The position numbers were made by a program, and so were the translations under genes. Positions 48,286-64,000 of a stretch of 64,000 nucleotides of DNA are shown here, piece by piece. The notes below the pieces were generated by a model, which saw only the letters and a program-made list of their open reading frames with translations, had not been told where the DNA came from and did no database searches. How positions within the stretch are numbered: position 1 is the first letter of the stretch; every line of letters starts with the position of its first letter. The stretch covers positions 1 to 64,000 of IMG/VR virus record IMGVR_UViG_3300021090_000723; one strand, 5' to 3'. This stretch comes from a virus.

Positions 48286-48381
48286 ATGGCGATGCGCCTG
48301 TACGATTATTGCGTGTGGCTCGTGTTCGGGGGACCGCTTCTTCTCGCGATCCTGGTCGGCCTCATCAAGGTCTTCGCCTAG
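48286..48381 (+). CDS. 31-aa hydrophobic peptide antisense to the late operon
   Basis: MAMRLYDYCVWLVFGGPLLLAILVGLIKVFA; single TM; overlaps the last codons of the giant gene. Confidence 0.4.
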   Translation: MAMRLYDYCVWLVFGGPLLLAILVGLIKVFA

Positions 48382-51300
48382 TCCGCTCCAGATATTCGGC
48401 GTTGAACATGCGGATGATACGTTCTTCCGCCTCGTTCAAGATCCGCACCTGCTCGTTGTAGCGCGGCCTCGCCATCCTGCCCTGCTCCAACGCCATCTTC
48501 GCCTGAGCGCGCGATGCCCTGATCTCGGACAGTTCCGTCCTGGCGTTGTTCGCGTCGTTGTAGAGCGAGAGCATTGCCCGATTCTCCTGGACGAAGCCAC
48601 GAGCCTCAGGTCTCCGGCCCTCGCGCTGGTAGTCCCTGGCATAGGCGCGCGACTGCTCGATCTTGTTGATCCGCTCGTAGAACGTCGCCTTGTCGATCCA
48701 GGGCGGCTTGGATGTGACGACGCGGCGCACGAAGGGGATGTCGTTGAACGTGATCGTGCTGGTCGGGTCGGCAAACTTCATGGGCAGATCGAGGAAGTTG
48801 CGCTCGTAGAACGTGCCTGCGGCGCCCCAGGCCACGCCGAACCCATAGTCCAGCCACTCGGGCGAAATCTCGATCAGTCCGGGCTCGACACCCGTTCCGC
48901 CCGAGGCCGTGCTCAGGAAGTCTGTGACCGCTTTGTAGGCGGGCGAGACCGAATTCCAATAGCGCTGGCTGTTCGGGACCTGTGGGCCGTACTGGGACTG
49001 CTCCGGCGCGATCGGCCGCCCGGCATAGTCCTTGTTCATGAAGAGATCGACGACCGGGTCCATGGTGGTGGGCGCGATCATGTTGAGCAGGTTCTGCGCG
49101 CCGCCAACCGGGTTGAACGAGTCCATGATGGTGATCGCGAGGTTGCCGGCCGACTCCAGCGGGTCCTTGCCACGCATAACCTCGGCGATCGAGCGGCCGA
49201 CGCCGTAGAAGATGTTGTAGCCGTAGGGCAGCGGGATCTTCGCCGCCACTCCGCCCTCGCTCGGCGTCATGACGATCAGGTTCCGGCTCTTATCGAACGG
49301 CGTCACCTTGTCGTAGAGCAGCTGGCCGTCATCGTCCTCATCGCTGACAAAGGCGTTGAGGAAGTCCAGCAGGAAGCCGGTCAGCACCGCGAACGCTGCA
49401 ACCTTGCGCACGCGCGGGGACTTCCAGGCGGTGAGCAACGTCGCGGTGCCTTGGATGCTCGCGTTATAGAACAGGTAGAGGCTGTTCATCAGCGGGCCCC
49501 ACGAGCCGCGGCGGTTGAAGTTCACCGTCAGGTTCTTGGCGAGAGACGCCGCCTTCGCCGGGGTGAAGCCACGCTCGCGCGCGTTCTTGTAGGCCGAGAG
49601 ACGGATGGCGTTTTCCACCCCGATGTTCGTGTTCTCGATGATGCGGCCGAGCGTCTTCATCGCCATGATCGGGTTGAGCTTGGACGTGCCGATCTCCCGC
49701 ATCTGACCGTCCAGGCGCTTCCGTAGCTCGAGCACGTCTTCCATCTGGTTGAAGTAGACGCGCCCGCCGTTCTCGCGGAACTCCTGGGCCCAACGGTCCC
49801 ACTCGGCCTGGTCCTTCGCCATCCACGGCATCAGGGTTTTGCCCGGCTCCGCCTTGAACGCGCTGCGGCTCGATGCCACCAGCGCCTTGCGGTAGTCCTT
49901 CACCGTTCCCTTGGTGATGCCCTTGATGTCGCCGTGCGCCTGGATGTTCGAGAGCGCGGTCTGCGCATCGCGGAAGGCGTTCGTGATGACGAACTCCGGG
50001 TTGAGCGTCGTGTTCACGTGGCTGAGAATCCGGTTGATCGCGCCAAAATTCCGGATCAGCAGGCTGATCTGATCCTGCCCCAGGCCCTTCAGGCCCTGGG
50101 CGAGATCGCGCGCGACCGGGTTGTTGCGGTTGAACGTGATGCGATGCTCTTGCCCGTCGATCTTGGTGGACAACGTGTACGGAGCATCTTCGGCGAGGAT
50201 GCGCCGGACCGGCCAGTATTGGACCTCCTGGCGGGCCTTGATCCACACCGGCCGCATCGCGACCTTGTCGACCTTCCAGAAGTTCTCGTTGGGCGCGGCC
50301 TTCGCCAGTTCGTAGATCGCGTTGCCGATACGATTGTTCTCTCCACGGATGATCGCTTCCTCGGCCTGCATGAACGCATAGGCCAGGATGTCACGCGCTG
50401 GCGACTGACGGCCGAAGGCACGGTGCGATTCCTTGCCCTTGACGTCGAAGCCCTTGCCCGGGCGCGGGCGGTCGGCCTCGACCTCAGGGTCCAGTTCGGC
50501 CACGCCGCGCAGCGGGACATAGTCGCGATAGGTGGCGCGCCAGGCCTCGGCCTGCTCTTCCGACATAAGACCCGCTTCGACGCGCGTGTTCAGCGCGAAG
50601 GCCAGGACGTCGTCGACCATGCCTGCCAGGGCGTCGAAGTCCGCGCGCCGGCCGGTCTTATCGACCTCGTCCATGATGCCGCGCGCATCTTCATCGCTCA
50701 TGCCCGAGCCAGCGATGCCCTCTTCCCGGAACTTCGGGTTGATCTCATTGATCCGCGCGTTGCGTTCCGGCGCGTGCCGGGCATAGAGGAACGTCTCAAG
50801 CTCTTCCCGGCTGATGCCGCGCTCGTGCATGGCGAGCACAAGCGGCCGGATTTGGCGCTCGAACAGATCCTCCAGCTTCGCGCCCTTGCGGCCGGACGAC
50901 AGTTCCTCGGCCAGATAGGCGTTCTCTTCCTCCGTGAGCGGACGACCCAGCATCTGCTCGATCGCCGCCTGCATGCGCGCGACCTTGAGATAGCGGTCCT
51001 GGAAGCCCACGCGCCACTTGTCGAACGACGCATTGATGGCGGAGAGCGAAGCGGCGCCCTTCAGCCGCTCCATCAGGGAGAGGTTCGAGTTGCGGAGATA
51101 GTCCACCACGCTCGGCTGCGGGGAGTCGGTGAACATCGTGAAGGCGTTCGCGCCGGGTGGCATGCGGCGGGCGAACAGGCCCTGGCCCTCCATCACGGAC
51201 TCGCGCATGGCAGGCGTCACGTCGAGCGAGTGCACGTCGATCACGCCCTGCTTCTTCTGTGGGTGGGTCTCGGCCACGGTCCACGACGGCTCCGATTCCT

Positions 51301-54300
51301 TGCCGGTGTCGATCTTGGTGGTCCCGACCTTCGCGTCCCACTTCTTGGCGTACCGGTTCAGGAACTGGGGCACGATCCTGTCGTAGAAGCCCTTCATGCC
51401 CTCGCCGCCGACGGTCAGGTCGAGGCCGGAGATTTCACGCACGCGCACACCAAGTCCGGCTGACCGCCCCTCTACTGGTGTTACAGCCAACAGCTTATCG
51501 GCAAGCTCCGCTCCGACCAGTTCCGCCAAGTCATCGCGCGACTCGATCTGACGATTGATGGCCTCCTCATTGCGCTTCCCGTAGGCAATGAGGTGCCCAC
51601 GTTCGAATGGCCCGTCCATCCGCGGGCGCCCAATCCCGCCGCTGACGTTGTCTGTCAGCCGGAGGCTGTTGACGTGCTTGGCAAGATTGTACCGCTCAGC
51701 CTGCTGCGCACCGGTCGTCCAGGCGAGGCGGTCGTAGCCGTTCTCGGCGGCGTAGCGCAGCATCCGCTTGAGGGCGATCTCGTGCCAGGTCGACTTGAAC
51801 GGCGCGTCCGGGACGCCGGTGCGCTTCTCGATCGCCTCGCCTTCCTTGATCGTCCAATTCGTCGTGTCCATCGGCGCTTGATCGTCACGATTCCACGCCG
51901 GCCGCCGCCCATGCTTATCGCGGATGAATTCCTGCGCCTGGTCCAGCGTCGGTCGAGTGCCTACCAGTTCGCCTTGATCGTCGAAGATTGAAAAGACCGG
52001 CGAACGGGTTTCCTTGACGCTATAGCCCTGGCGTCTGCCCTTCTGATGCCAATCGCTCTGGATCTCCTCGATGAAGAGCACCCTCTTGCCGTCGGCGTCT
52101 GCGCGATCCTTGAAGCGCACATGGGCCAGGATATTCGCCTCATCGAAGTGACCTGAGCGGAACTGGCCGCTGAGCGCATCGATCGCGAGGCTCCTGTCGC
52201 CGGGATACCGGCGCCGCATGACATCGATCCAATGCGCGTCGTTTGGGCCCTCGTATTTTTTCGTGACGCTATTGAGCACGATCGGGTCATCCCAGGTCCC
52301 AACCTTATGGTCGCCGTAGAAGACCGTGACGTCGCCCTGGGTGGTCGACCGACGATTGCGCTCGATGCGGACCTTGGCCGGGTCGAAGGGCACGCCGATC
52401 TGCGGCAGCGTCAGCAGCAGTTCGCGGTAGTTCTCGCCGCCAGGGAGGGTTTGGGACTCAAACTTGGTGGCGCCGCCCTCGGCGACGATCCCGGCATCAC
52501 GATGGATCGCTTCACGCGCTTCGATGAAGTCCCCGAAGTCGCCCAACTCTCGACCAGCCCGGATGGCATTTACGCGAGTAACCACTCCGCGCTGGTCGTA
52601 ATGGAACGTGACGCTAGCATCGTCAGCGTCAAAGGCCATTTCCGAATAATACCGTTGACCCTCAGGTTGGATGGTCCTTTCTTCATCGGGGAGCCAATCC
52701 TCGATATTCTCCGGATAGGGTCCCTCATCGTCGCCAGGCGCGCGGCCCTTCTCGACCTCCTCGATCTGGACGTTGTTCTCGCGGATGAAGTCGAGCAGCG
52801 CCTGCTTCGTGACCGGTCCCTGCTGGGACTCGAGCCATTCGTTCACGCCGGTCCACTCGGTCTCGTCCTTCGTGATGCCGCGCGCGTTCTTGATGAAGGC
52901 CTGCCACTGGATGCCCGACGCCTTCTCCTGCTTGGAGGCCTCGATCGTGCGCGCGAGCGTCGAGAAGAACGGCGCCGGCGGCTGTGGCTTCAGGGCGAAC
53001 TTCGCCTCGGACCTGGTGGGCCCGGCCTTGCCGCGCTTGCCGATCCTGCCGGACTCGATGCGCTTGAAGATGTCCTCTGGCGTCTGGAAGCCGCGGCCGC
53101 GGAAGAAGTTGCGCAGGCCCTCGAAGAAATTGCGCACGCGCTGGAGAACCTTTGTCGCCAGGCCTGCCTTCGCGAATTCGTTGCTAGGCTCATAGTTCTG
53201 CGCCGCGAACGCGATCGTTTCCTCGGTCTGGACGTCGGGCTTGTAGTATTTGCCGACGATATCGAACGTCCGTTTCCACTTGTCTTTTGCGGCCGCTTCG
53301 AGTGTGGCCCACTCTGACTTGGTGAAGAAGCCGAGATTGCGCAGGCCGTGGATGACCTCATGCGTGATGGTGCCGAACGGGTCCTTGGTATCGAGCGCAA
53401 TGGTGATGAGGTTTTTTGTGATGTCGAAGTGGCCGTCGGCCTCGTGGCCCTCAGGGTCCGCAATCGCATCGGCCACGCGCACGGCGAGCGGAAGGTTGCG
53501 ATTGACCAGATAGGCGCGGAGATCGGCGGCCAGCTGCTCGCGCTTCGCCTCGAACTCGGGGCTGAATGTGAAGGTGACGCCGTCGCCGGTCTCGATGACC
53601 GGTGGCGCCTGCGGGAGCCTTAGTCTTTCAAGGCCTCTTCCAACGCCTTCTGGGCGCGCGCCCTCGCCTGCTCCACCTCTGGGCTCGACGGCAAGTCCTT
53701 GGTCCTCGCCAAGAATCTCCGCAATGCCATCGGCGAACTGAGTGGGGGCGGTTCCTCGATCAGATACATTGACGACTCCAATCGCTTTCAGCGGCGAGGC
53801 GATGGCCTCGGCCCCGGCTTGCGCCATCGTATCGAACGTGGCCGCAAGGCTTTCCGGAACAACAACGGATGAACGGTAATCGATGAGGCCGGCGCGCGCT
53901 AGACCCACCGCGAAGTTATGGCTGAAGTTGGCGACGGCGAGGTTGCGATCGAGGCCCCGCTCGCGGATCAGCGAACGGCCGACGCGGCCCTGGGCGTTCT
54001 GCGATTCTTGCAGCATCTTGTTCAGGATGTCGGAGGGGCTGGACCACAGCGTCAGGTCCAGATCGGCGAAGGCCCGGCGCGTCTCGGGGGTGAGACGGGC
54101 GGCGTGCCACTGCCCCTCCGTGGTGTGGGCGATCATCCAGTCCAAGCCAGGGAGATCCAGCAACGTCAGGTCTGCGAAGGACAGGCCGTATGGCATCGTG
54201 TGGTTATGGTGGAACACGATCCGCGCATCTGGCTTGCTGAGCGCATCCTCGATCTTGCCCCGGAGGTTCACATATGTGTCCTTGCCGGAGGTCTCCGCCG

Positions 54301-57300
54301 CGATGACCGTCTGGGTGGCCGGGTCGTAGGCCACGGCCGCTTCGGTCTTGGTGCGCTCACCGAAGGCGCGGAGCCAGTCGCCGATCGCCACGTTCACGGC
54401 TGCTGGCGTCTTGGCCTTCTTCTTCGCGACGAATTTCCCGAGGTCGTCGGCCAGGTCCGAATTGCCCTCCACGATCCGGCGCGCGAGCATGCCCTCGTCC
54501 CTCGGCGGCCGGGCGGGCGGCGCCAAGCCCAGGCCTTCGCCAGGCGCCTCGCTCAGGATGAAGCCGGCGGAGCGGCGCGGCGGGAGGTCCGGCTCGGGCG
54601 CCCCGGCCACGGGCTGGGGATCGGCCTCGATGAGGCCAAGCGCCTGGTCGATCTTGCGCTGACGCTTCAGCGCCGCCTGGTATTGGTCCTCGCGCTCGAA
54701 CGGGACCTTGACCAGTTCCTTGAAGTCCACGAGCTTCTTCTTCGCCGTGTCGATCTTGGCCTGGCGATAGTCGATCTCGCCTGGGCGGCTCTTGAAGAAG
54801 TTCTCGATGCGGCTGATGGCGCCCAACTTGAGCGACTGGAGATCGAGCTCCACCTTGTCGGTCATCTTGCCGTGGATCACGGCCTGCGGCTGGTAGTAGC
54901 CGTCGACCTCAACCGAGATCGGGAAGCCGTACATCTTGCCGATCGGGATGTCCTCGATCTCGGCGTTGCGCTTCCGGCCCTGGGCCTCGTTCTTGGACTT
55001 CTGGAGGTTCCAGGCCTTCTCGATGATGTCGGCCAGCGCCTTGGACGCATCGACGCGCTTCTCATAGACCGTGCCCAGGATGGTGTAGTGCGGCTTGTCC
55101 TTGCGTTCGAGGTAGGCGGCGTGGTCGGCTTTGACCCGCCCGCGCGCCTCTTCCATCCCGGCGATCTCGCCCGGCAGGCGGTGGATCTGCCACTCCATTT
55201 CGTGGATGTTGTCGTAGTGCGCACCGCGCAGGCGCGAGAGACGATCGACGTCCGAGTCCGCCTTCGCCTTGTCCAGGATCAGCGGGTTGCCCGCGGCGAG
55301 GGCCTTGGCCTCGGCGAACGACAGCACCTGCTCATCGATGTCTTCGGCCTCGCGGACCGAGGGATCGCCGCGCTTGATCTGGTTGATGAAGCGGGCCTTG
55401 CGCTCGACGGTCTGCCACATATAGGCGTCGAACGATCCTTCGGTGACGTAGCGGAAGAGGTCGATCTCTTCGTTCGTGTTGCCCTGACGCTCGATGCGGC
55501 CCTCGCGCTGCTCGATGTCCGATGGGCGCCACGAGGGGTCGACGTGGTGGAGCGCCTTCAGGCGGTCCTGCACGTTCGTGCCGATGCCCATCTTCTCGGT
55601 CGAGCCCAGCAGGATGCGCTTGCGGCCGGCGCGCACGTCGGCGAAGAGGTTCGCCTTCTTCTGATCGGTGTTGGCGTCCTGGACGAACGCGACATCGTTC
55701 GCGTTCACGCCCTTCTTGACCAGTTCCTCCTTGATGTCGCGATAGATGCTGTAGGCCACGTTCGACGGGACCGACATATCGCAGAAGATGATCTGGGTGT
55801 GCTTTTCCTTGGCGCCCGCCTTGTAGATGCGCGCCGCGTTGCTCGCGACCTCGGAGGCCTTCCGGACCTTTTCCTTCCTCGCGGCCGGGTCCACCACACG
55901 CAGATCGAGCGATGCCTTGCGGCCGTCGGTCGAGATCAGCAGCATGTTGTCTTCGTCGGGCGTCACCTCGCGCTTGCGGACCGCCTCGGCGCGCTCGCCG
56001 ATCTCCGCGATGTAGGCCTTGAGCGCATCGCTCGCGGGCACGATGATGGTCTTGGGCCCGCCGCCGCTGATCTTCGGGAGCTTCACCTGGCCGGTCGCGA
56101 TCAGGTCGTCCTTGCTCACCAGGTCCGAGAACTGCCGGTACATCGAGATCAGTTCGGGGATGTTGCGGAAGCGCGCGAAGCGGGTCTTCAGCATCGCCTT
56201 TCCGCCCTCGGGCGTGATCTCGGCTTGCGTGACGGTGTCGCCGAAGGTCGAGGCCCAGGCGTCGAAGTGCGAGAGGCCGCGCTCGGCCAGCCCGCGCGGC
56301 TGGAGATAGCGCTGCATCGTGTACATTTCGGCCATCGAGTTCGAGATCGGCGTGCCGGTCATGAACATGAGGCCGCGGCCCGGCGTCATCTTGTCGATGT
56401 ACTTGGTCTTCAAATAGAGATCGAACGCCCGCTGGCTCGACGGCGGGTTCATGTTCGTGATCTTCGTCGCGAATTCCAGGTTCTTGAACAGGTGGGCTTC
56501 ATCGACAAAGATGCCGTCGACCCCCATTTCCTCGAACGACAGGCCCCGGTCCTTGTCCTTGGCCTGCATCAGTTCGCGGAGCTTTTCCTCACGGCGCTTC
56601 TTCGCGGCTTCCAGCTGCTTGACCGTCGGGCTGCGGCCCCCGGTGTCGGTCTCGCGCGCGGCACGGATCAGGTCCGCATATTCGGCGATCTCGTCGCGGA
56701 TATAGTCAGCCTGGAACTTGGCCGACATGCCGACGCGCTCGAAACTGGAGTGCGTCATGATGATCGCGTCCCAGTTTCCGGCCGCCGCACGGGCGACGAA
56801 GCGACGGCGATTGTCGCCAGCGAAGGCGCGCTCGTCCGCCACCAGGATGCTGGCGTTCGGGTACAGCTGCATGAACTCGCGGCTGAACTGCTCCAGCATG
56901 TGGTTCGGGACGGAGAACAGCGGCTTGCTCAGCAGGCCTATGCGCTTGGCCTCCATGGCGGCCGCGATGGCCGTGAACGTCTTGCCGGCGCCCACCAGGT
57001 GGTCGAGCAGCGTGTTGCCCGAGACCAGGTAGCGCCAGACGGCCTTCTTCTGGGTGGAGCGCAGTTCGATCGTGCTGCTGGAGCCAGGAAGCGTCAGGTG
57101 ATCGCCGTTGAAGGTGGCGACCCGGAGGTTGTTGAAGTTGTCGTTGTAGAAGCGGGACAGCCGCGCACCGCGCTCTGGGTCCTTCCAGATCCACTTGGAG
57201 AAGCGCTCCTTGATGTCGTTCTGCTTTTCCTGCGCCACGATGGTGGCGTTCATGTCCGTGTGGGTCTTGCCCTCGGAGTCCTGCCAGGAAATGACGGTCG

Positions 57301-60300
57301 ACTTCTGGTTAAGCGCATCGCGGATGAGGTCGATGCCGCGGCGCGCGATCGACTTGCCCTCGGCGCGCGAGGTCGTCCAGTTGACCGACCAGGTCTGGGT
57401 GTTGGGCGCGGTGCCCTCCTGGGCAATGCGCACGTGCCAGGTCGCTTCCTTCGGCACGTATTCAACGATGGCCTCGGTCTCGAGCAGTTCGGAAATGAAC
57501 CCCTCGACGTCCGAGTTGGGAATCCACGGCGTGCCCATGCGCACCGCGATCTGAGACGGCTTCAGATCGACTGGCTGGACGACTTCGAGCGCCTTGACGT
57601 TCTCGGCCCACTCGGGCTCGCCCTTGGCAGCGTCACGCGCGAAGGCCAACTTTCCGCGCACGTTGCCCGAGAGATAGACCTCGGACGGCTCGTAGGCGCC
57701 GGTCGCCGGGTTCTTGAAGATGCGGCCCTTGAGTTCGTTGAGGAACGTGCTCGGCTGACGGCCCAGGATTTTTGCCATGTAGGGCACGTCGACTATGCCC
57801 TTCATGTTCATGGACGCGATCAGCGCCTCGTCCGGCGTGTTCACGCGGAGGATTTCGCGCGTCGGCTCGACCACGCGATCGGTGAAGATCGGGCCTTTGA
57901 TGCCCTCGTTCTTCTCTTCATCGAAGCGCTCGAGCGCGGAGACCAGCGCCGCGTCCGGATCGTCACGGAACGCCAGCATGTTCGGGTAGCGGCGGTATTC
58001 GCGCACCTCACCGTCCGGCATCGTGCGCCGGCTGATCTGAACCTGGTTGATGTAGCCGAACGCCTTGACGAACTGGGCGTAGAGTTTCCCCAGTTCCTTC
58101 TGCGGCGCGACCCACGGGGCCGTGCCCTTGCCTTCCCACTCGCCGCGCTGCGCGGTCAAGATCTCGCGGGCCTTGTCGCGGAGCCTGATGAGCAGGCGCA
58201 CGCGCCCGGCCTGGCCGTCGGAGAGTTCGACCGGCACGGAGGATTGCAGCACGCGCTGGAACAGCTTGCCGTCACGTTCGAAGAAGGCGTTGTCCTTCAC
58301 CGTGTCGGGCGGCGGCGCCAGGTCATCGTATGTGTCCACGTCCCCGGCCTCGGGATCGAAGCGGAGCGCGGACTTCTCCATCATGGCCTGGACGGCATTG
58401 GCGATCTTCTCGCGCAGGCCCGTTGCCGTTCCGGTAACGGTGTATTCGTCCTCGCGGTACATGCCGCGCGTGACGGCGTTCGTCCCCAGGATCATGTTGG
58501 GGTTGTCTTTGAAATACTGATTGACCGTCGCCGGGCTCGTGCCGACGCGGAACTCCTTGGCCTCCAGCCAATCCGGCTTCCCGGCAGGCTCGCCCTCCTT
58601 CCGCTTACGGATGAACAGGATGTCCGTGACGACTTGGGTCCCGGCGTTCTCCTTGAAGGCGGTGTTGGGGAGACGGATGGCGCCGATCAGGTCGCCGCCG
58701 GCGTCCCGGATCATGGTGCGCGCGGTCTTGTCCTGCGAGTCCATCGTGTAGCGGCTGGTCACGAGCGCAAGCACGCCGCCAGGTTTGACCAGCTTCAGGC
58801 TCTTGAAGATGAAGTAGTTGTGCAGGCTGAGCGGGCGGCCCTTATTGTACATCTTGTCGGCCGGGCGAATGTCGCCGAACGGCACGTTGCCGATGACAAG
58901 GTCCACGCTGTCTTCCGGAAGCGCGGTGTCCTCGAAGCCCTGCACGAAGATGCGCGCCTCGGGGTAGAGCGCTCGCGCGATCTTGCCGGTGACGTCGTCA
59001 AGCTCCACGCCGATGAACTTCGGATCGCTGCCCTTCGGGCGCATGCCCATGAAGTTGCCGATGCCCATGCCGGGTTCGAGCACGTTGCCCGAGCCGGTGA
59101 AGCCGAGTTCGGTCACGCCGTCCCAGATGCCGCGAACCACATCCTGGCTGGTGTAGTGCGCGTTGATGGTGGTCGCGCGAGCCGACGCGAACTGCTCCGG
59201 CGTCAGCATGGCCTTCAGCTGCTCGCGGTAGGGGATCAGGCCGTAGTCGAGCCCGCGGCCCTCATCGAAGATCTTGGCGAGGCCCGTGGCGCCCCAGCCC
59301 ACGTAATGGGCAAGCTGCTCCTGGTCCTCACGGCTGGCGAGTTGCCCGCCCTTCTCCAGGTCGAGAGCGACCCGGATGGCTTCGATGTTCTTGACGATGC
59401 GCTGGGCTGGACTGCCGGTGGCATAATCGGCGTCTTCAGCGATGCGGAAGTTTAGTCCTCGTATCCCCCGCTTGGCCCGATCCCCGAGGCTTCCCTCTCG
59501 CTCATCGGGAGATACTCCCTCAGGGCGTCCGACTCCGCCATCAGGAGGGCGCTCCGCTCCAGCTTGATCCGTCTCTCCAGAGGCTCGTCCTGGCTCACTT
59601 GCGGAAGTTGGCTGTTGACCCAGTTCGCTATCGATTCCGATAGGTCCTGGACCCTCTGCTCCAGCTTCCCCTCCGCCTTCAGGCCCGCGAACTCCTGTGG
59701 TCGGTGCACCCGCAGGTGCCCTTCCACCTTGCTCCGGTAGCTTTCCGGGCTGACCTTTTGCACGTTTTTCCCTTTCGAGCTCGGCCCAGCGCTTCGGAAT
59801 ATCGATCTTTTTGAGCGCTTCTTCAACTGCCTGCTTGGAGTCGGGCAGCGGCGTGTAGGTCTTTTCCTTGAGCGATCCGTCCTCGTTCCACTCCAGCTGG
59901 TCGAGCAGGCCGCGCCACATCAGGGCGAAATTGGCGCGCTCTTCCTCGGCGGGATAGGGCGTGCCGCGATAGCCGGCTTCCTTGGTCGTCTGGCCTTCCG
60001 CCACCCAGCCATTGACCAGGTAGGGCGAGGTCTGCCCCTTGGCGGCCAGTTCATCGTAGATGAAGGACTCGAACGAGCGCGCCCACAGTTCCTCGGGCCG
60101 CACCCAGTATTTGCCAAGCTCTTGGGCGTTGCGCTTGAACTTGGTCGTGAGCTTCGCGCTCCACCCCTCGTTCTGCCAAAGGTGGTCCACGTACTGCTCG
60201 GCGGTCTTGAGCGGGCCCAGGCCTTGCCTGCCCCGGATGTGCGACCGGCCGGTGAGCAGATTGTCGACCATCTTGATCGCACCCTCCACGTCCCAGGTGT

Positions 60301-63300
60301 GGGAGAGCGTGCCGTTGACGCTTGCGAGCAGGGCGCGCGCACTCTGACCGGCGGCCAGCAGCGCCTTCTTCTCGGCCTGGAGCGGCTTGACCTTGTCGGA
60401 CAACTCCATCGAGTTGATCGTGCCCTCGCGGTTCCGCTTCACCAGCGCCTCGATCTCCTTGTCGATCGCCGGGACCCGGACGCCGCCTGCGCGCAGGTTG
60501 AAGTCGAGCGCATGGCCCCATTCGTGCGACAGGGACCCGTCGCCCTTGGTCTTGGTCAGGTTGATGACGTTGGTGTCTGGCTCGTAGTGAGCGGAGCCGA
60601 ACCCAGATCCGCGCGAGCCGAACGCCAGGCCCAGCTTACCGCCGATGGAGATTGCCTTCGCTGGCACACCCATTATCTCGGCGAAGTCCATGAGCGCGTC
60701 GTAGGCGGCGTTGACGTGCGCCTGGCCCTCGCGGCCGGTGACCCAGTTCCCGAACTCGACGCCGCGGAAGCCGAAGGTCTTGCGGAAGTCCTCGGCCTTG
60801 ACGTTCTTGCCCGCCTTCCGGCGCTCGGGCAGGCCCGGGCGCGTGATGTCCTCGATCCGGATGCTCGGCCGCACGAGGGGCGTGGCGCGTGTCGGCATCG
60901 TGTTGTCGTCGCGGAAGTGGGGCAGGCCTTCGTCCAGGCGCCACAGGTTCGGCCACGAATAGTGGTGCAGGTACGGCCGCAACGTCTTCTGCGCCCAGTC
61001 CGTGGCGATGACGCGCGCCGACATGCCTTCCGGGCGCTGGACCTCTTTGACGATCAGGCGCTTGAGCGCGGCGTGGATGTCCTCGACGTTCTTCGCGCCG
61101 GCGAGCGCATCGCCCAGGATCTCCATCGCGCCGATGTATTCGGCGGCGTTCTCCAGGATGGTCTCGCGCTTCTCCTCCCAGCGCTTCTCCAGCGTCTTTC
61201 TGAACGGCGTGCGCCATTTGCCACGGCCGCCGCCCTGGTTCTTACCCTCCTGCTCGGTGAAGGTGACGAACGAGCGGGAGACGAAGTCGGCGAAGACGTG
61301 GGCGCCGGTCGTGGCGTCAGCCGCCAGGCGGGAGCGGAGGTCCCGCGCGTCCAGAGCCTGCTCGAGCATCTTGTCCAGATCCTCGATCTTCTCGACCTTG
61401 GCTTTGGCCTGGGCGCGCTTGCCCGCCATGGCCTCGCCCACGTCCGTCATCTTCGGCATGGGCGCGCGGCGGTCGGTGACCGGCTTCCTTGGTTCTTTGA
61501 CCGGCCTCTTCTCGGGCGCCTCGATTGTTTCACGTGAAACATCAACGGCCTGGGGCAGAATCGCGGTGGTCGTGTCGCCCTCTTCGATCCACCGTTTGAA
61601 GTCGGCCACGTTCATTTCGAGGCCGCCGTTCTTCCGGCGCTGCGGCCCCGAGCCGTCCGAGTACCCGGCGTCATAGACCGCGATGGCCTGCTCCGGGGTG
61701 TCGACCGCGGCGATGGCCTTGTGCTCATCGAACTTGCCGGTCTTCGGATCGTACTGATCGATGACGAAGACCTTGTCGCTCTTCAGGTTCGGTCCGAGGT
61801 AAATGTCCAGCTTTTCCTGCTGGTTAGGCGGGGCGTTCGGCTTCGCATCCGCACCGATCGAGCGCTTGATGTAGCCGTAGTCGGCCAGGATGTTGACGTT
61901 CGTCCAGATCGGCTTGCCGTCCTCGCCCTCGGGCCCAAGGCGATCCGTGCCCTTCGGCGTCTCGATAGTGATGTCCAGGCCGTTCCAGTTCTCGATGTGG
62001 CCCTTGGCGTAATTCCCAGCCTCGCGCTGCGCCTCGGTCGTCTCCTTGGCGACCGCGTCACGCGCCGGCTGGATGTCTTCCTCGGTCTCCGGACGCTTGA
62101 CGGGGTTGGTCTTGGTGCCTTCCGGCGCCCGGGCGACGTGCTTGATCTTCGCAAGCTGCTCTTTGGCGCTGGCGATGAGGCCGAGGGCGTCCCGCTTCGC
62201 AGAGTCGGGCCAGCTGCCCGACATTGCCCGCTCGACATAGCTGGTCACATAGGCCTTGGCTTCGTCCAGCGTGGCGAATTCGTTCGCGTGCGAGCCGCCC
62301 ATGCCGCCCGCTTGGCTGGTGATGTTGTACGAAATGCGCGGGACCGTGTAGCGGGCCTCCTGCGGGTCGTAGACGATCATAAACGCGAGGTTGCTGCTGC
62401 TCTTCTTCGCCTTGGCCGGGAGCAGTTTGCCGGTGTCGAGCACCACTTCGCCGCGCTCCATGACGGCCTCGTGCTCGTCCCGGGCGACCTTCTCGCGCGC
62501 CCTCCGGGCGTCGTGCTCGGCATCCTCGGCGGCGCGCTGGCTTTTGGCTTCCTTGGCGATCGTCGGCCACTTGTACTCAAGGTCGGACTGCTCGGCCTTC
62601 GCCTTCGCGATGTCCACTTTGTAGCGCTCGATCTGGCTCTTCCACGTGTCGAGGTTGATCTTGGATGGCTTCTTCGGTCCCGCCAGGGCCTCGTCCATGC
62701 GCTTCTGCGTCTCGGCCATGTTGTGCTGGTAGGCCGAGAGGTGGAATTCGCGCTGGCGGTAGTCGTCCAGATCCTGCGCCATCGGATGCTCGGGGGCTTC
62801 CGGCTGCTCGCGCTCCACCAGGTAGTCGCCAATGTCCTTGACCAGGTCCGGGAACTTCTTGCCGTACCACTCCAGGCGCAGGCCCTTGGCCGCGGCGCGC
62901 GCGGCGTAGATCGACTTGTCCCAGCCCGGCTCCGGGGTGAAGCGCTCTTCCTGCGCCTCTTCCTCGGCGCGATCGGCCTCCATCTGGACGATCTCGTCCG
63001 TGGTGGGCTCCATCACGTCTTCGCCGGACTTCTCGCCGGGCGCGAGTTCGCGCGCTGGCGGGGTTATGAGACCAGGCAGCGGCTCAACGGGACCTTCGCC
63101 TTCGCGTTGCGCCATGCGCCGGGCTTCATCGGCGCGCTCATCGGCAATGCGCGTTTCCAGCGCCGCGCGCATCAGCCCGGTTTTGGTGTCGTAGTTCCGG
63201 AGGATGTGCTCCTGGAACACATCGGCGGCTTCCACGCCGAACGAGTCGGCATAGGCGCCCCACCAGTTCACGAATTCCTCAGGGGCGGCGGTGAAGGCCT

Positions 63301-64000
63301 CCTTGGCCTCTTTATCGAGCCGGTCCTTGGCCTTGGCGTTCTTCGGCGGCTTGCCGGTGGCGGGATCGTTGCCCGAGTCGATGTAGGCCTGCGCCGCGCG
63401 CAGCTGGTTGATGGGCTCTTCGAAGTGCCGCAACGCCTCATCGTGGAAGGCGCGCAGCGTTTCGGTGCGCTCTTCCGGCGTCTCGGCCGGGTTCTCGTCC
63501 CAGAAGCCGGGGCGTCCGGCTTCGCGCAGCGCTTCATCCGCAGGCTCGGGGAACGTCTTCTTGAAGTCGAAGGGCAGTCGTTTGCCGCTCGACTTCTTGC
63601 CCTTTTCCTTGGCGAGATCGGCGGCCTCGCGCTCGATCTGGGCCATTTCCGCCTCGACGTCCTGGGCGGGCTTGGTGCCCGGCACGGTGAACGTCTCCTT
63701 GGGCGGCGTCTCCCTGATCCATTCCTCACTAGGCTCACCTGGCGGCTGGGTGAGATCGGCGCGCTTGACGTCGCCGGTCTTCACGTTGTGCCAGCCGATC
63801 TGGTTGTCCTCTTCGTCGAAGAGCGCTTGCCAGTCCTTGCCACGGGGCTTGGGCGGCATTTCTGCCTTCGGCGGCTGGGTTGGTGGCTTGGGCGGTGGCT
63901 CTGGAGCCTGTTCGGCCGCACCCGCTGGCGGCTCTCCTGGCGCGCCTGGGCGCTCCATCGTGGGCTCGACGCGCGGCTTTTCCGGCTCGCCCTCGCCCCG
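48365..64000 (-). CDS. Giant DarB-like polyvalent virion/ejection protein (>5,197 aa, 5'-truncated). N to C: PPase-like, LPD1/zincin, N6-MTase, SNF2 helicase, JAB-like, zincin, LPD38-like
   Basis: GNYAKGH..DYGYI..FDEHK (~61580-62020); EFGNWV..AHYEP..HEWGHALD..ARSFE (~59900-60850); LEPGMGIG..GNVPFG (~58480-59450); VGAGKT, VDEAH, TGTPISN, EQREGRIERQGN (~55250-57120); HHNHT..S..D (~53870-54360); HEVIHG (~53350); EEIQSDWHQ (~52060); NFNRRG..LFYNA..IPLPYG (C-terminus). Confidence 0.9.
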   Translation of the reverse strand, partial: RGEGEPEKPRVEPTMERPGAPGEPPAGAAEQAPEPPPKPPTQPPKAEMPPKPRGKDWQALFDEEDNQIGWHNVKTGDVKRADLTQPPGEPSEEWIRETPPKETFTVPGTKPAQDVEAEMAQIEREAADLAKEKGKKSSGKRLPFDFKKTFPEPADEALREAGRPGFWDENPAETPEERTETLRAFHDEALRHFEEPINQLRAAQAYIDSGNDPATGKPPKNAKAKDRLDKEAKEAFTAAPEEFVNWWGAYADSFGVEAADVFQEHILRNYDTKTGLMRAALETRIADERADEARRMAQREGEGPVEPLPGLITPPARELAPGEKSGEDVMEPTTDEIVQMEADRAEEEAQEERFTPEPGWDKSIYAARAAAKGLRLEWYGKKFPDLVKDIGDYLVEREQPEAPEHPMAQDLDDYRQREFHLSAYQHNMAETQKRMDEALAGPKKPSKINLDTWKSQIERYKVDIAKAKAEQSDLEYKWPTIAKEAKSQRAAEDAEHDARRAREKVARDEHEAVMERGEVVLDTGKLLPAKAKKSSSNLAFMIVYDPQEARYTVPRISYNITSQAGGMGGSHANEFATLDEAKAYVTSYVERAMSGSWPDSAKRDALGLIASAKEQLAKIKHVARAPEGTKTNPVKRPETEEDIQPARDAVAKETTEAQREAGNYAKGHIENWNGLDITIETPKGTDRLGPEGEDGKPIWTNVNILADYGYIKRSIGADAKPNAPPNQQEKLDIYLGPNLKSDKVFVIDQYDPKTGKFDEHKAIAAVDTPEQAIAVYDAGYSDGSGPQRRKNGGLEMNVADFKRWIEEGDTTTAILPQAVDVSRETIEAPEKRPVKEPRKPVTDRRAPMPKMTDVGEAMAGKRAQAKAKVEKIEDLDKMLEQALDARDLRSRLAADATTGAHVFADFVSRSFVTFTEQEGKNQGGGRGKWRTPFRKTLEKRWEEKRETILENAAEYIGAMEILGDALAGAKNVEDIHAALKRLIVKEVQRPEGMSARVIATDWAQKTLRPYLHHYSWPNLWRLDEGLPHFRDDNTMPTRATPLVRPSIRIEDITRPGLPERRKAGKNVKAEDFRKTFGFRGVEFGNWVTGREGQAHVNAAYDALMDFAEIMGVPAKAISIGGKLGLAFGSRGSGFGSAHYEPDTNVINLTKTKGDGSLSHEWGHALDFNLRAGGVRVPAIDKEIEALVKRNREGTINSMELSDKVKPLQAEKKALLAAGQSARALLASVNGTLSHTWDVEGAIKMVDNLLTGRSHIRGRQGLGPLKTAEQYVDHLWQNEGWSAKLTTKFKRNAQELGKYWVRPEELWARSFESFIYDELAAKGQTSPYLVNGWVAEGQTTKEAGYRGTPYPAEEERANFALMWRGLLDQLEWNEDGSLKEKTYTPLPDSKQAVEEALKKIDIPKRWAELEREKRAKGQPGKLPEQGGRAPAGAPTTGVRGPEGGGEAGAEGPGPIGIDSELGQQPTSASEPGRASGETDQAGAERPPDGGVGRPEGVSPDEREGSLGDRAKRGIRGLNFRIAEDADYATGSPAQRIVKNIEAIRVALDLEKGGQLASREDQEQLAHYVGWGATGLAKIFDEGRGLDYGLIPYREQLKAMLTPEQFASARATTINAHYTSQDVVRGIWDGVTELGFTGSGNVLEPGMGIGNFMGMRPKGSDPKFIGVELDDVTGKIARALYPEARIFVQGFEDTALPEDSVDLVIGNVPFGDIRPADKMYNKGRPLSLHNYFIFKSLKLVKPGGVLALVTSRYTMDSQDKTARTMIRDAGGDLIGAIRLPNTAFKENAGTQVVTDILFIRKRKEGEPAGKPDWLEAKEFRVGTSPATVNQYFKDNPNMILGTNAVTRGMYREDEYTVTGTATGLREKIANAVQAMMEKSALRFDPEAGDVDTYDDLAPPPDTVKDNAFFERDGKLFQRVLQSSVPVELSDGQAGRVRLLIRLRDKAREILTAQRGEWEGKGTAPWVAPQKELGKLYAQFVKAFGYINQVQISRRTMPDGEVREYRRYPNMLAFRDDPDAALVSALERFDEEKNEGIKGPIFTDRVVEPTREILRVNTPDEALIASMNMKGIVDVPYMAKILGRQPSTFLNELKGRIFKNPATGAYEPSEVYLSGNVRGKLAFARDAAKGEPEWAENVKALEVVQPVDLKPSQIAVRMGTPWIPNSDVEGFISELLETEAIVEYVPKEATWHVRIAQEGTAPNTQTWSVNWTTSRAEGKSIARRGIDLIRDALNQKSTVISWQDSEGKTHTDMNATIVAQEKQNDIKERFSKWIWKDPERGARLSRFYNDNFNNLRVATFNGDHLTLPGSSSTIELRSTQKKAVWRYLVSGNTLLDHLVGAGKTFTAIAAAMEAKRIGLLSKPLFSVPNHMLEQFSREFMQLYPNASILVADERAFAGDNRRRFVARAAAGNWDAIIMTHSSFERVGMSAKFQADYIRDEIAEYADLIRAARETDTGGRSPTVKQLEAAKKRREEKLRELMQAKDKDRGLSFEEMGVDGIFVDEAHLFKNLEFATKITNMNPPSSQRAFDLYLKTKYIDKMTPGRGLMFMTGTPISNSMAEMYTMQRYLQPRGLAERGLSHFDAWASTFGDTVTQAEITPEGGKAMLKTRFARFRNIPELISMYRQFSDLVSKDDLIATGQVKLPKISGGGPKTIIVPASDALKAYIAEIGERAEAVRKREVTPDEDNMLLISTDGRKASLDLRVVDPAARKEKVRKASEVASNAARIYKAGAKEKHTQIIFCDMSVPSNVAYSIYRDIKEELVKKGVNANDVAFVQDANTDQKKANLFADVRAGRKRILLGSTEKMGIGTNVQDRLKALHHVDPSWRPSDIEQREGRIERQGNTNEEIDLFRYVTEGSFDAYMWQTVERKARFINQIKRGDPSVREAEDIDEQVLSFAEAKALAAGNPLILDKAKADSDVDRLSRLRGAHYDNIHEMEWQIHRLPGEIAGMEEARGRVKADHAAYLERKDKPHYTILGTVYEKRVDASKALADIIEKAWNLQKSKNEAQGRKRNAEIEDIPIGKMYGFPISVEVDGYYQPQAVIHGKMTDKVELDLQSLKLGAISRIENFFKSRPGEIDYRQAKIDTAKKKLVDFKELVKVPFEREDQYQAALKRQRKIDQALGLIEADPQPVAGAPEPDLPPRRSAGFILSEAPGEGLGLAPPARPPRDEGMLARRIVEGNSDLADDLGKFVAKKKAKTPAAVNVAIGDWLRAFGERTKTEAAVAYDPATQTVIAAETSGKDTYVNLRGKIEDALSKPDARIVFHHNHTMPYGLSFADLTLLDLPGLDWMIAHTTEGQWHAARLTPETRRAFADLDLTLWSSPSDILNKMLQESQNAQGRVGRSLIRERGLDRNLAVANFSHNFAVGLARAGLIDYRSSVVVPESLAATFDTMAQAGAEAIASPLKAIGVVNVSDRGTAPTQFADGIAEILGEDQGLAVEPRGGAGEGARPEGVGRGLERLRLPQAPPVIETGDGVTFTFSPEFEAKREQLAADLRAYLVNRNLPLAVRVADAIADPEGHEADGHFDITKNLITIALDTKDPFGTITHEVIHGLRNLGFFTKSEWATLEAAAKDKWKRTFDIVGKYYKPDVQTEETIAFAAQNYEPSNEFAKAGLATKVLQRVRNFFEGLRNFFRGRGFQTPEDIFKRIESGRIGKRGKAGPTRSEAKFALKPQPPAPFFSTLARTIEASKQEKASGIQWQAFIKNARGITKDETEWTGVNEWLESQQGPVTKQALLDFIRENNVQIEEVEKGRAPGDDEGPYPENIEDWLPDEERTIQPEGQRYYSEMAFDADDASVTFHYDQRGVVTRVNAIRAGRELGDFGDFIEAREAIHRDAGIVAEGGATKFESQTLPGGENYRELLLTLPQIGVPFDPAKVRIERNRRSTTQGDVTVFYGDHKVGTWDDPIVLNSVTKKYEGPNDAHWIDVMRRRYPGDRSLAIDALSGQFRSGHFDEANILAHVRFKDRADADGKRVLFIEEIQSDWHQKGRRQGYSVKETRSPVFSIFDDQGELVGTRPTLDQAQEFIRDKHGRRPAWNRDDQAPMDTTNWTIKEGEAIEKRTGVPDAPFKSTWHEIALKRMLRYAAENGYDRLAWTTGAQQAERYNLAKHVNSLRLTDNVSGGIGRPRMDGPFERGHLIAYGKRNEEAINRQIESRDDLAELVGAELADKLLAVTPVEGRSAGLGVRVREISGLDLTVGGEGMKGFYDRIVPQFLNRYAKKWDAKVGTTKIDTGKESEPSWTVAETHPQKKQGVIDVHSLDVTPAMRESVMEGQGLFARRMPPGANAFTMFTDSPQPSVVDYLRNSNLSLMERLKGAASLSAINASFDKWRVGFQDRYLKVARMQAAIEQMLGRPLTEEENAYLAEELSSGRKGAKLEDLFERQIRPLVLAMHERGISREELETFLYARHAPERNARINEINPKFREEGIAGSGMSDEDARGIMDEVDKTGRRADFDALAGMVDDVLAFALNTRVEAGLMSEEQAEAWRATYRDYVPLRGVAELDPEVEADRPRPGKGFDVKGKESHRAFGRQSPARDILAYAFMQAEEAIIRGENNRIGNAIYELAKAAPNENFWKVDKVAMRPVWIKARQEVQYWPVRRILAEDAPYTLSTKIDGQEHRITFNRNNPVARDLAQGLKGLGQDQISLLIRNFGAINRILSHVNTTLNPEFVITNAFRDAQTALSNIQAHGDIKGITKGTVKDYRKALVASSRSAFKAEPGKTLMPWMAKDQAEWDRWAQEFRENGGRVYFNQMEDVLELRKRLDGQMREIGTSKLNPIMAMKTLGRIIENTNIGVENAIRLSAYKNARERGFTPAKAASLAKNLTVNFNRRGSWGPLMNSLYLFYNASIQGTATLLTAWKSPRVRKVAAFAVLTGFLLDFLNAFVSDEDDDGQLLYDKVTPFDKSRNLIVMTPSEGGVAAKIPLPYGYNIFYGVGRSIAEVMRGKDPLESAGNLAITIMDSFNPVGGAQNLLNMIAPTTMDPVVDLFMNKDYAGRPIAPEQSQYGPQVPNSQRYWNSVSPAYKAVTDFLSTASGGTGVEPGLIEISPEWLDYGFGVAWGAAGTFYERNFLDLPMKFADPTSTITFNDIPFVRRVVTSKPPWIDKATFYERINKIEQSRAYARDYQREGRRPEARGFVQENRAMLSLYNDANNARTELSEIRASRAQAKMALEQGRMARPRYNEQVRILNEAEERIIRMFNAEYLERTRRRP
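53620..53769 (-). CDS. Nested +1-frame small gene (49 aa) inside the giant ORF
   Basis: GGAG-N6-ATG; MYLIEEPPPLSSPMALRRFLARTKDLPSSPEVEQARARAQKALEEALKD-TAA; the main frame here is a G/E/R-rich linker with rare codons. Confidence 0.65.
   Translation of the reverse strand: MYLIEEPPPLSSPMALRRFLARTKDLPSSPEVEQARARAQKALEEALKD
59452..59763 (-). CDS. Nested +1-frame gene (103 aa), TnpV-like helical protein, inside the giant ORF
   Basis: AAGGGA RBS then GTG; YRSKVEGHLRVHRPQEFAGLKAEGKLEQRV...MAESDALREYLP; the main frame here is a low-complexity G/P/E/R linker. Confidence 0.7.
   Translation of the reverse strand: MQKVSPESYRSKVEGHLRVHRPQEFAGLKAEGKLEQRVQDLSESIANWVNSQLPQVSQDEPLERRIKLERSALLMAESDALREYLPMSEREASGIGPSGGYED
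61526..61541. promoter_or_regulatory. parS: Chromosomal-type parS palindrome TGTTTCACGTGAAACA
   Basis: Perfect 16-bp consensus; AT-rich island within GC-rich coding DNA; encodes DVSRET in a linker. Confidence 0.8.

Follow-up and report, generated by a model that had tools for sequence, protein, structure and literature searches.

A predicted TnpV-like gene nested in the +1 frame of a giant DarB-like polyvalent protein gene of a virus

Can DNA that a giant viral gene reads as a low-complexity linker also carry a complete second gene in another frame of the same strand? The question is raised by positions 59452-59763 of the window, the 64,000-nucleotide stretch analyzed here (positions 1 to 64,000 of the IMG/VR record IMGVR_UViG_3300021090_000723), for which an earlier note, made from the letters without database searches, had proposed a hidden gene. 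We conclude that 59452-59763 (-) is very probably a genuine same-strand overlapping gene, predicted to be separately translated.

In Bcep22-like and related phages, DarB-like polyvalent proteins account for a fifth of the genome, and they are believed to enter the cell together with the injected DNA as a counter to restriction. The giant polyvalent gene of the window (48365..64000, (-)) extends beyond it, its first ATG lying at contig position 65665, which gives 5766 codons. A domain search orders its parts as InPase, LPD1 (59891..60115, (-), upstream of the linker and variable among relatives), an Eco57I-type MTase, ResIII/SNF2/Helicase_C and LPD38; the N-terminal part looks, by eye, like a lytic transglycosylase. 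LPD-type domains, an N6-adenine MTase and an SF2 helicase are therefore found in one ORF, as in the DarB-like polyvalent virion proteins of Iyer et al. 2017. The DarB-like N6-adenine MTase and SF2 helicase module (55022..59448, (-)), comprising the Eco57I-type MTase, ResIII, SNF2 and Helicase_C domains, begins directly 3' of the nested stop; its homologues in cultured phages carry a DarB-like annotation, and residues 1503-2979 of the giant protein align to a stand-alone 1929-aa gene at locus L021. Over the nested ORF, the main frame encodes a linker (59449..59764, (-); residues ~1399-1503, numbered from the ATG at 63958) composed of 25% Gly, 12% Pro, 10% Ala, 10% Glu and 9.5% Arg, a count that agrees with the G/P/E/R low complexity described earlier, and is written with rare codons ending in A or T (ATA, CGA, GGA, CTA).

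The nested ORF itself (59452..59763, (-)) lies in frame +1 relative to the giant ORF and was delimited from its sequence, codon-position GC, a family profile and an AlphaFold2 (AF2) model. It consists of a GTG start (59763-59761), 103 sense codons and a TAA stop (59454-59452), and its acidic product has a pI of 5.25. The Shine-Dalgarno-like (SD-like) AAGGGA (59769..59774, (-)) stands 5 nt (AAAAC) 5' of the GTG, so that the 103-aa ORF and its AAGGGA-N5-GTG start are present as first read; the window copy thus combines a GTG start with an imperfect SD, its AAGGGA holding no AGGA, GGAG or GAGG 4-mer. A 5' extension to a TTG at 59826 (59764..59826, (-); 124 aa) is possible but probably lies outside the nested protein, since conservation in the family begins about 8 residues before a conserved His, fitting the GTG at 59763. 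A scan of 59200-60100 for promoters and terminators found none.

Length says little about whether such an ORF is a gene. An open frame alone is unremarkable at 65% GC: the giant gene holds twelve same-strand ORFs of 113-193 aa in alternative frames, and its +1 open stretches reach up to 211 codons. Codon-position composition is more telling. Across 59860-59460 the GC3 of the main frame falls from a gene mean of 0.86 to 0.34-0.40, and over the same bases the +1 frame shows codon-position GC of ~0.65/0.40/0.82, the normal coding signature of the giant gene; an equally strong flip occurs nowhere else in it. In a leave-one-out family profile, the window protein scores 28.4 bits, compared with at most 9.9 bits for 1000 shuffles. 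That the ORF arose by chance in GC-rich DNA and resembles TnpV by accident would fit the abundance of alternative-frame ORFs of this length in the giant gene and the sub-threshold Pfam match described below, yet it is contradicted by the GC-phase flip, by the profile score of 28 bits, by the conservation of its position among relatives and by a confidently predicted fold, and we find it scarcely credible.

The case for the window copy alone is weaker than that for the family. Selection on this copy is inferred from homologues of ~20% identity, and synonymous resampling of the nested ORF gives a chance probability of P = 0.135 that the main frame stays open here. Low-depth contig runs (X3-X5) cover the nested-ORF stretch patchily; X3 differs from the window at three letters in 151 bases, and the two of these differences that are listed fall inside the nested ORF and alter the main-frame protein while leaving the +1 product unchanged, a weak signal at n = 2.

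A tblastn search with the window peptide gave no matches in viral contigs or GenBank phages, and relatives were reached solely through the MTase flank or through profiles. At all 21 phage loci found by their MTase, a +1 open stretch of 99-170 codons ends 12-147 nt before the MTase, while the +2 frame is broken in 21/21, and the pattern persists even at 39-40% GC. Among viral contigs found by peptide, 49/50 carry the nested gene in frame +1 of a giant ORF, the 50th contig ending inside the ORF, and wherever the gene is nested the MTase follows its stop at a distance of 6-630 nt; bacterial genomes found by peptide show the same nesting in 15/18. Altogether, the nested arrangement turns up in dozens of phages and prophages, and loci with nesting span 39-69% GC; cultured carriers include Burkholderia phages DC1 and JC1, Ralstonia phage Gerry, Vibrio phage VvAW1 and Klebsiella phage LASTA. 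Over the length of the nested gene, the main frame stays open in 20/21 of the MTase-found loci and in 49/50 viral and 15/18 bacterial loci found by peptide. Synonymous resampling makes this openness improbable by chance in most mid- and low-GC loci (P <=0.003), with a summed log10 P of -59 over 27 loci that are not all independent.

These counts bear on whether the giant ORF is itself an artefact, in which three genes (an upstream polyvalent gene, a tnpV-like gene and a darB-like gene) would lie side by side and the main frame would be open by chance or through assembly error. The chance openness of P = 0.135 in the window alone is compatible with such an arrangement, the main-frame translation is typical of GC-rich low-complexity sequence read in the wrong frame, and both L021 and P1 show that an MTase-helicase can stand alone. 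Nevertheless, the main frame is open at nearly all the loci just counted, finished genomes of cultured phages included, some low-GC loci have a chance openness below 0.001, and the window contains neither a main-frame stop for the upstream part nor a conserved main-frame start for the MTase part, all of which renders an artefact highly improbable.

The earlier note had made its proposal depend on the existence of homologues and on purifying selection in the +1 frame, and both are found. A profile search returns 634 relatives, mostly of 80-130 aa, and in six orthologues identity is 57-64% in the +1 frame against 31-39% in the main frame over the same bases, and third positions of the +1 frame take substitutions about twice as often. 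Where members of the 634-relative set were traced, their contigs mostly measure 0.5-2.7 kb. The family thus shows the pattern expected of dual coding, with two open frames and purifying selection on the nested one, to which the window adds its composition flip; as judged from these comparisons, both frames are kept by selection across the family. The TnpV-like frame also appears to be the older of the two readings. This appearance, together with the free-standing TnpV-like genes that exist at L029, L036 and L046 (whose neighbours show no Pfam domains), would suit a relic, that is, a tnpV-like gene overrun by the fusion of its neighbours whose translation has been lost and whose signature is fading ancestry. 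A dead frame, however, would not keep an identity of 57-64%, an excess of third-position changes, an undamaged ORF and both a start codon and an SD, nor would it retain them among lineages that share only 37-46% identity in their MTase domains and differ in GC content (39 to 69%); a relic is accordingly very unlikely.

How the nested frame would be entered can be judged from its start region. An SD-like 4-mer (AGGA, GGAG or GAGG), counted 5-18 nt upstream of the start, accompanies an ATG or GTG in 30/34 loci, compared with a background of ~0.135 (P = 2e-22), and conservation in the family begins at the Met. A programmed +1 frameshift would instead yield a truncated isoform, in which the N-terminal modules are followed by a TnpV-like C-terminus ending before the MTase-helicase. 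In its favor, the +1 frame of the window runs open over the 52 codons that precede the GTG, the SD-like motif there could serve as a stimulator, as such a motif does in prfB, and a fusion of this kind is encoded in the GenBank entry for Sinorhizobium phage PBC5 (orf33, 2185 aa, ending at the TnpV-like stop). The PBC5 fusion corresponds to a 1-nt deletion relative to four relatives, ~47 nt (45 to 50) before the nested ATG, and as a single 2001-era record it may be a sequencing error. Moreover, in the loci examined the start codon stands where conservation begins and the SD at initiation distance in 30/34, a +1 stop lies just 5-6 codons upstream of the ATG in L014, L017 and L019, and a common slippery or hungry-codon site was not noticed. 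We thus regard a programmed frameshift as quite unlikely and infer that initiation is internal.

Distances among the nested proteins track those among the MTase domains (Mantel r = 0.83, 0/2000 permutations), and by this measure the MTase-helicase module and the nested gene are inherited together. A tie to LPD1, one of the two neighbouring domains that the earlier note thought such a gene may regulate, is not supported: the nested gene follows the downstream MTase-helicase, and LPD1 occurs within 450 aa upstream in 0/10 relatives, being variable among them and hence no conserved neighbour. InPase is found within that distance in four of the 10 and stands directly before the nested start in L010.

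The resemblance to TnpV proposed in the earlier note survives an HMM search of the product, albeit as a match below the Pfam threshold. The window protein matches TnpV (PF14198) with 15.9-16.1 bits (E 0.011-0.013; profile positions 25-95 of 111), and since the curated gathering threshold of this family is 27 bits, we file it as TnpV-like or related rather than as a Pfam member. Its positional orthologue in L003 passes at 36 bits (E 7.3e-9; profile positions 31-110 of 111), and TnpV is the top family for 6/17 nested proteins. The TnpV proteins of the Tn4451/Tn4453-type mobilisable transposons and of Tn6104-6106 are of the same size (~100-125 aa) and helical, and the N-terminal motif H/W..x..P..x..L..G.L is common to PF14198 and the nested protein. 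The AF2 model of the latter consists of four helices with a pLDDT of 79.9, rising above 90 for residues 1-50, and this all-helical model does not resemble lambda Xis. Foldseek returned nothing from the PDB at E <= 1e-3, and a sequence-profile search of the PDB gave nothing meaningful; a wide VIA-align search peaked at Z 7.0, and several chains of sigma-factor region 2 scored Z 5-6.7. Small helical models reach such values by noise, and no fold was assigned. The founding TnpV is free-standing beside a large serine recombinase (TnpX), whereas the nested gene sits out of frame in a phage virion-protein gene. For TnpV itself, a function has so far only been postulated, namely one resembling that of Xis (PMC3158075). 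A role as directionality factor for a large serine recombinase, as postulated for Tn4451, was rejected for these phages, as no PF00239 resolvase domain was found in the 104.9-kb record or in five cultured carriers.

With the nested frame read as a gene of its own, the following picture can be proposed. Ribosomes on the 5,766-codon gene would read the DNA of the nested ORF as a disordered Gly/Pro/Glu/Arg linker, while other ribosomes would initiate internally in the +1 frame at the GTG, with AAGGGA 5 nt upstream, yielding a separate acidic protein of 103 residues, predicted to be a four-helix member of the TnpV superfamily; translation of the nested frame would stop at the module boundary, directly before the DarB-like MTase-helicase. 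The linker was probably born when the flanking genes fused by read-through of a once free-standing tnpV-like gene.

Whether this arrangement is general is a separate matter. A second +1 ORF at 53620-53769 does share both the frame and the GAC-TAA ending with 59452-59763, each placing a CTA codon in the main frame; the shared ending is a consequence of the positions of the stops and no sign of a design. The composition signal of this second ORF is weaker than that at 59452-59763, no flank relatives were found for it in viral contigs and no peptide matches in any fetched locus, and other long +1 stretches in five relatives are junk-like in composition. A recurring gene-in-gene design is therefore not borne out. 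As for the idea that linkers of giant polyvalent proteins are shadows of hidden genes, it fits the present linker, which looks like a by-product of an older frame because the nested frame bears the native codon signature and the conservation while the main frame is of low complexity and poorly conserved; its extension to other linkers is not supported.

Embedded out-of-frame genes are represented by lambda Rz1 inside Rz, comS inside srfAB and the overlaps of phiX174. The likeness to these cases is one of analogy: here too, a larger gene holds within it, in the +1 frame of the same strand, a small gene that is complete and equipped with its own start, and both products are presumably made from one mRNA. 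Unlike in these cases, the host reading here looks derived and the small gene ancestral, and the host is a multidomain fusion of 5,766 codons. The ShiLan insertion in a phage methylase gene hides an out-of-frame HNH endonuclease and is described as actively homing (PMC11855218). The two cases share a segment that is open in frame within a phage methylase-type gene and conceals an out-of-frame gene, but the nested gene described here is co-inherited with its flank, as the Mantel correlation indicates, and has no nuclease features, unlike the homing ShiLan element.

The P1 Dar system (DarB with Ulx, DdrA, DdrB and Hdf) offers a functional parallel, the host module here being likewise DarB-like. 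The EcoB/EcoK anti-restriction phenotype of P1 depends on small separate proteins such as Ulx, whose gene lies just downstream of darB (PMC12810830). In Bcep22-like phages, homologues of the P1 Dar accessories were not found (PMC9144972), which by analogy would leave their role vacant. Ulx was rejected as a homologue of the nested protein (hhalign probability 0.5%), and P1 darB, in contrast to the window, has no nested or upstream TnpV-like gene; the Ulx parallel is an analogy and not evidence. Complex prediction that paired the nested protein with residues 1-397 of the MTase module gave scores of 0.18 and 0.00, which are under the mark and speak neither for nor against binding. Tentatively, the nested protein may serve the packaged anti-restriction module of MTase and helicase as an accessory or partner that is made separately, and the overlap would keep the two inseparable. 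Such a partner cannot be universally required, given that the MTase-helicases of P1 DarB and L021 stand without a TnpV-like ORF upstream. More doubtful is a stronger version, in which the TnpV-like protein would be an obligatory, separately translated subunit of DarB-type modules (a chaperone, packaging adaptor or activity switch) filling the role of Ulx and the Ddr proteins in P1, and in which the overlap, having arisen by fusion across a free-standing tnpV, would be adaptive and would now prevent recombination from splitting the pair, whether in phages, ICEs or plasmids.

Literature searches found no published description of the nested TnpV-like gene, and the foundational survey of polyvalent proteins makes no mention of TnpV, overlapping genes or frameshifts (PMC5512222). 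As had been foreseen for gene callers, annotation usually skips it: 0/6 inspected records of cultured phages list the nested ORF as a separate gene. Virion proteomics would miss its product if spectra were matched to annotated genes only, as is usual, and engineering or recoding of the giant gene would unknowingly destroy or alter it. Codon-phase scans, on the other hand, can recover nested genes in GC-rich DNA, where ORF length says little. The locus also provides an unusually clean case of dual coding, in which the host frame, and not the small gene, looks like the newcomer. If the reading as a hidden gene is true, the protein concealed in the linker would be an unrecognised component of the DarB-like anti-restriction system; if the obligatory-subunit reading is true as well, it would provide a first function for TnpV, which has been an orphan family since Tn4451.

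Inside the giant polyvalent gene of the window (48365 to beyond 64000, minus strand), a second ORF in the +1 frame runs from a GTG at 59763 through 103 sense codons to a TAA at 59454-59452 (-), preceded by AAGGGA and five bases; motif, start, length, stop and frame are exactly as the earlier note had read them. The main frame translates the same bases into a linker that is 25% Gly and 12% Pro, with Ala, Glu and Arg near 10% each. ORF length is uninformative here: twelve same-strand ORFs of 113-193 aa lie in alternative frames of the giant gene, and its +1 frame can stay open for as many as 211 codons. The codon-position signal is local: the giant gene as a whole has GC1/2/3 of 0.64/0.44/0.86, and from about 59860 to 59460 the main-frame third-position GC drops to 0.34-0.40 while the +1 frame takes 0.65/0.40/0.82, the cleanest such flip in the gene. 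Third positions are nearly free in single-coding DNA, so another constraint must act on this interval.

The source record is 104.9 kb long at about 65% GC, and the contig beyond the window (L098, 64001-65665) adds 569 codons to the giant ORF, which totals 5,766 codons from its first ATG at contig position 65665; judged by eye, this extension comprises a lytic-transglycosylase-like region followed by hydrophobic helices. With residues numbered from the in-window ATG at 63958, Pfam places InPase at residues 642-792, LPD1 at 1282-1356 and an Eco57I-type N6-adenine methyltransferase (MTase) at about 1620-1750, together with ResIII/SNF2/Helicase_C and, close to the C-terminus, LPD38, all on the minus strand. 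The predicted product is a DarB-like polyvalent protein, the annotation given to its homologues in cultured phages. Opposite the MTase-helicase lies an antisense open frame of 1845 codons (53918-59455, +), whose TAG stop (59453-59455) overlaps the TAA of the nested gene; stop-free antisense frames are usual in GC3-rich coding DNA, and this is probably one of them.

The window's nested peptide returned no relatives by tblastn, and loci were fetched instead through the neighbouring MTase domain (37-46% identical). In all 21 testable viral loci obtained in this way the +1 frame is open for 99-170 codons, up to a point 12-147 nt before the MTase, and the +2 frame is fragmented; the open stretch persists at 39-40% GC, and its peptides are clearly related to one another. 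Searching with three of these peptides added 50 viral loci. One is cut off by a contig end; in the other 49 the peptide is nested in the +1 frame within a giant ORF, and the MTase follows 6-630 nt after the nested stop. Of 18 loci from bacterial genomes (Rhizobiales, a Brucella plasmid, Acinetobacter, a planctomycete and a myxobacterium), 15 are nested likewise and three are free-standing in unrelated contexts. Cultured carriers include Ralstonia phage Gerry, Burkholderia phage DC1, Vibrio phage VvAW1, Pseudomonas phage Itty13, Klebsiella phages LASTA and SopranoGao, Agrobacterium phage Atu_ph08, Ochrobactrum phage POI1126, Erwinia phages Pavtok, PEp14 and Stean, and a Microcystis phage. In the six cultured-phage records whose annotation was inspected, the nested ORF never appears as a gene of its own, and four of them annotate the giant gene alone on that strand. 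Metagenome runs of freshwater sediment and freshwater, from several studies, also contain DNA nearly identical to window 58800-60400: 82% of sampled words in one run and 5-21% in others.

At the sequence level, we show that one stretch of DNA at the nested locus is maintained for two readings. Among six orthologues of 39-67% GC, identity is 57-64% for the +1 peptide and 31-39% for the main-frame peptide from the same bases, and +1 third positions take substitutions about twice as often. When the nested protein was held fixed under synonymous resampling, a stop-free main frame had P <=0.003 in most mid- and low-GC loci; log10 P sums to -59 across 27 loci, not all of them independent, and the window by itself gives P = 0.135. 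Low-depth freshwater and sediment contigs hold near-identical DNA, and one differs from the window by three letters in 151 bases; the two differences listed, both inside the ORF (the third is unlisted), are synonymous in the +1 frame and replace Ser by Pro and Ser by Thr in the main frame, a pattern consistent, at n=2 only, with +1-frame selection in the window's lineage. The start codon coincides with the onset of nested-protein conservation, and 30 of 34 loci have an AGGA, GGAG or GAGG 4-mer 5-18 nt upstream of it, compared with a background frequency of 0.135 (P = 2e-22). An origin of the product by frameshifting has little room, because a +1 stop stands 5-6 codons before the nested ATG in three loci. 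Distances between nested proteins follow those between MTase domains (Mantel r = 0.83, 0/2000 permutations), which indicates that the nested gene is inherited with its flank, without independent mobility.

The TnpV likeness proposed in the earlier note was borne out in part: TnpV (PF14198) is the top Pfam family for the window's nested protein, but at 16 bits against a threshold of 27, whereas the positional orthologue in the fetched locus L003 passes with 36 bits across nearly the whole model. TnpV is matched by 6 of 17 nested proteins, and the window's copy is best described, from profile comparison, as TnpV-related, short of Pfam membership. Against a profile of 59 relatives from which it had been left out, it scored 28.4 bits (E = 1e-7) over residues 9-50 only, whereas the top score among 1000 shuffles was 9.9 bits. 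Judged by eye, it also seems to have the family's C-terminal motif (VRE.YLF.PEE), at a displaced position, as ALREYLPMSERE. AlphaFold2 with the family alignment gave four helices with a pLDDT of 79.9, exceeding 90 for the first 50 residues. The family is acidic (median pI 4.8; window's protein 5.25). A profile search of 1.84 billion representatives recovered 634 relatives, mostly 80-130 aa; those looked up lie mostly on contigs of 0.5-2.7 kb and are nameless or labelled 'hypothetical protein', so gene callers seem to report the nested ORF mainly where the giant gene is fragmented.

In the 2001 record of Sinorhizobium phage PBC5 (L099 1420-1809, AF448724.1), the upstream polyvalent part and the TnpV-like segment share one reading frame, orf33 (2185 aa), which ends at the TnpV-like stop; the MTase is listed there as its own gene. 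Compared with four relatives, the record lacks one A in GAAG about 47 nt (45 to 50) upstream of the nested ATG, which brings the two parts into frame; either a sequencing error or natural variation could lie behind the fusion. In PHROGs, 44 of 60 nested proteins match positions ~2084-2173 of phrog_938 ('endolysin', 2185 positions; best E 3.5e-29). The profile has the length of orf33, so its tail probably carries the out-of-frame TnpV-like peptide, for which the 'endolysin' label is probably misleading.

Of the two neighbours named in the earlier note, the nested gene is tied to the downstream one only: the MTase-helicase is constant across nested loci, but LPD1 occurs within 450 residues upstream in none of 10 relatives. 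InPase does so in four, directly before the nested start in one (L010). The nested stop marks the start of homology to the stand-alone MTase-helicase gene of locus L021 (aligning from residue 1503), and no TnpV-like ORF lies upstream of that gene or of P1 darB. At the position where the window has LPD1, many relatives, among them Burkholderia phage DC1 and Ralstonia phage Gerry, carry a conserved domain that matches no Pfam family and stops about 40 nt short of the nested start (for example PBC5 1093-1455 and, in other fetched loci, L030 5586-5960, L026 2299-2616 and L025 2182-2613).

The broader suggestion that linkers of giant polyvalent proteins are shadows of hidden genes is supported for this one linker, not as a general rule. 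A second +1 ORF in another G/E/R linker (53620-53769, -; 49 codons) has a coding-like +1 GC1/2/3 of 0.56/0.46/0.80; its peptide has no relatives in the fetched loci, nor its flank in viral contigs, and other long +1 stretches in five relatives look junk-like in composition. The founding polyvalent-protein paper (PMC5512222) mentions neither TnpV, overlapping genes nor frameshifts, and literature searches found no description of the nested TnpV-like arrangement.

TnpV has been proposed as an excision factor for serine recombinases (PMC3158075), a role that misfits the nested protein, the resolvase domain being absent from the record and from five cultured carriers. In P1, the small separate proteins Ulx, DdrA, DdrB and Hdf are needed alongside DarB (PMC12810830), and they are without known homologue in Bcep22-like phages (PMC9144972). 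By this analogy the nested protein might, tentatively, serve the packaged MTase-helicase as an accessory or partner, although P1 Ulx is unrelated to it in sequence. The small protein would most likely come from ribosomes that initiate internally on the mRNA of the giant gene. Both the native codon signature and the conservation belong to the nested frame, the host frame drifts and is of low complexity, and TnpV-like genes also exist free-standing. The small gene is therefore probably the older reading, and the linker would have arisen through a fusion of the flanking genes that read across it; this would be the reverse of classical overprinting.
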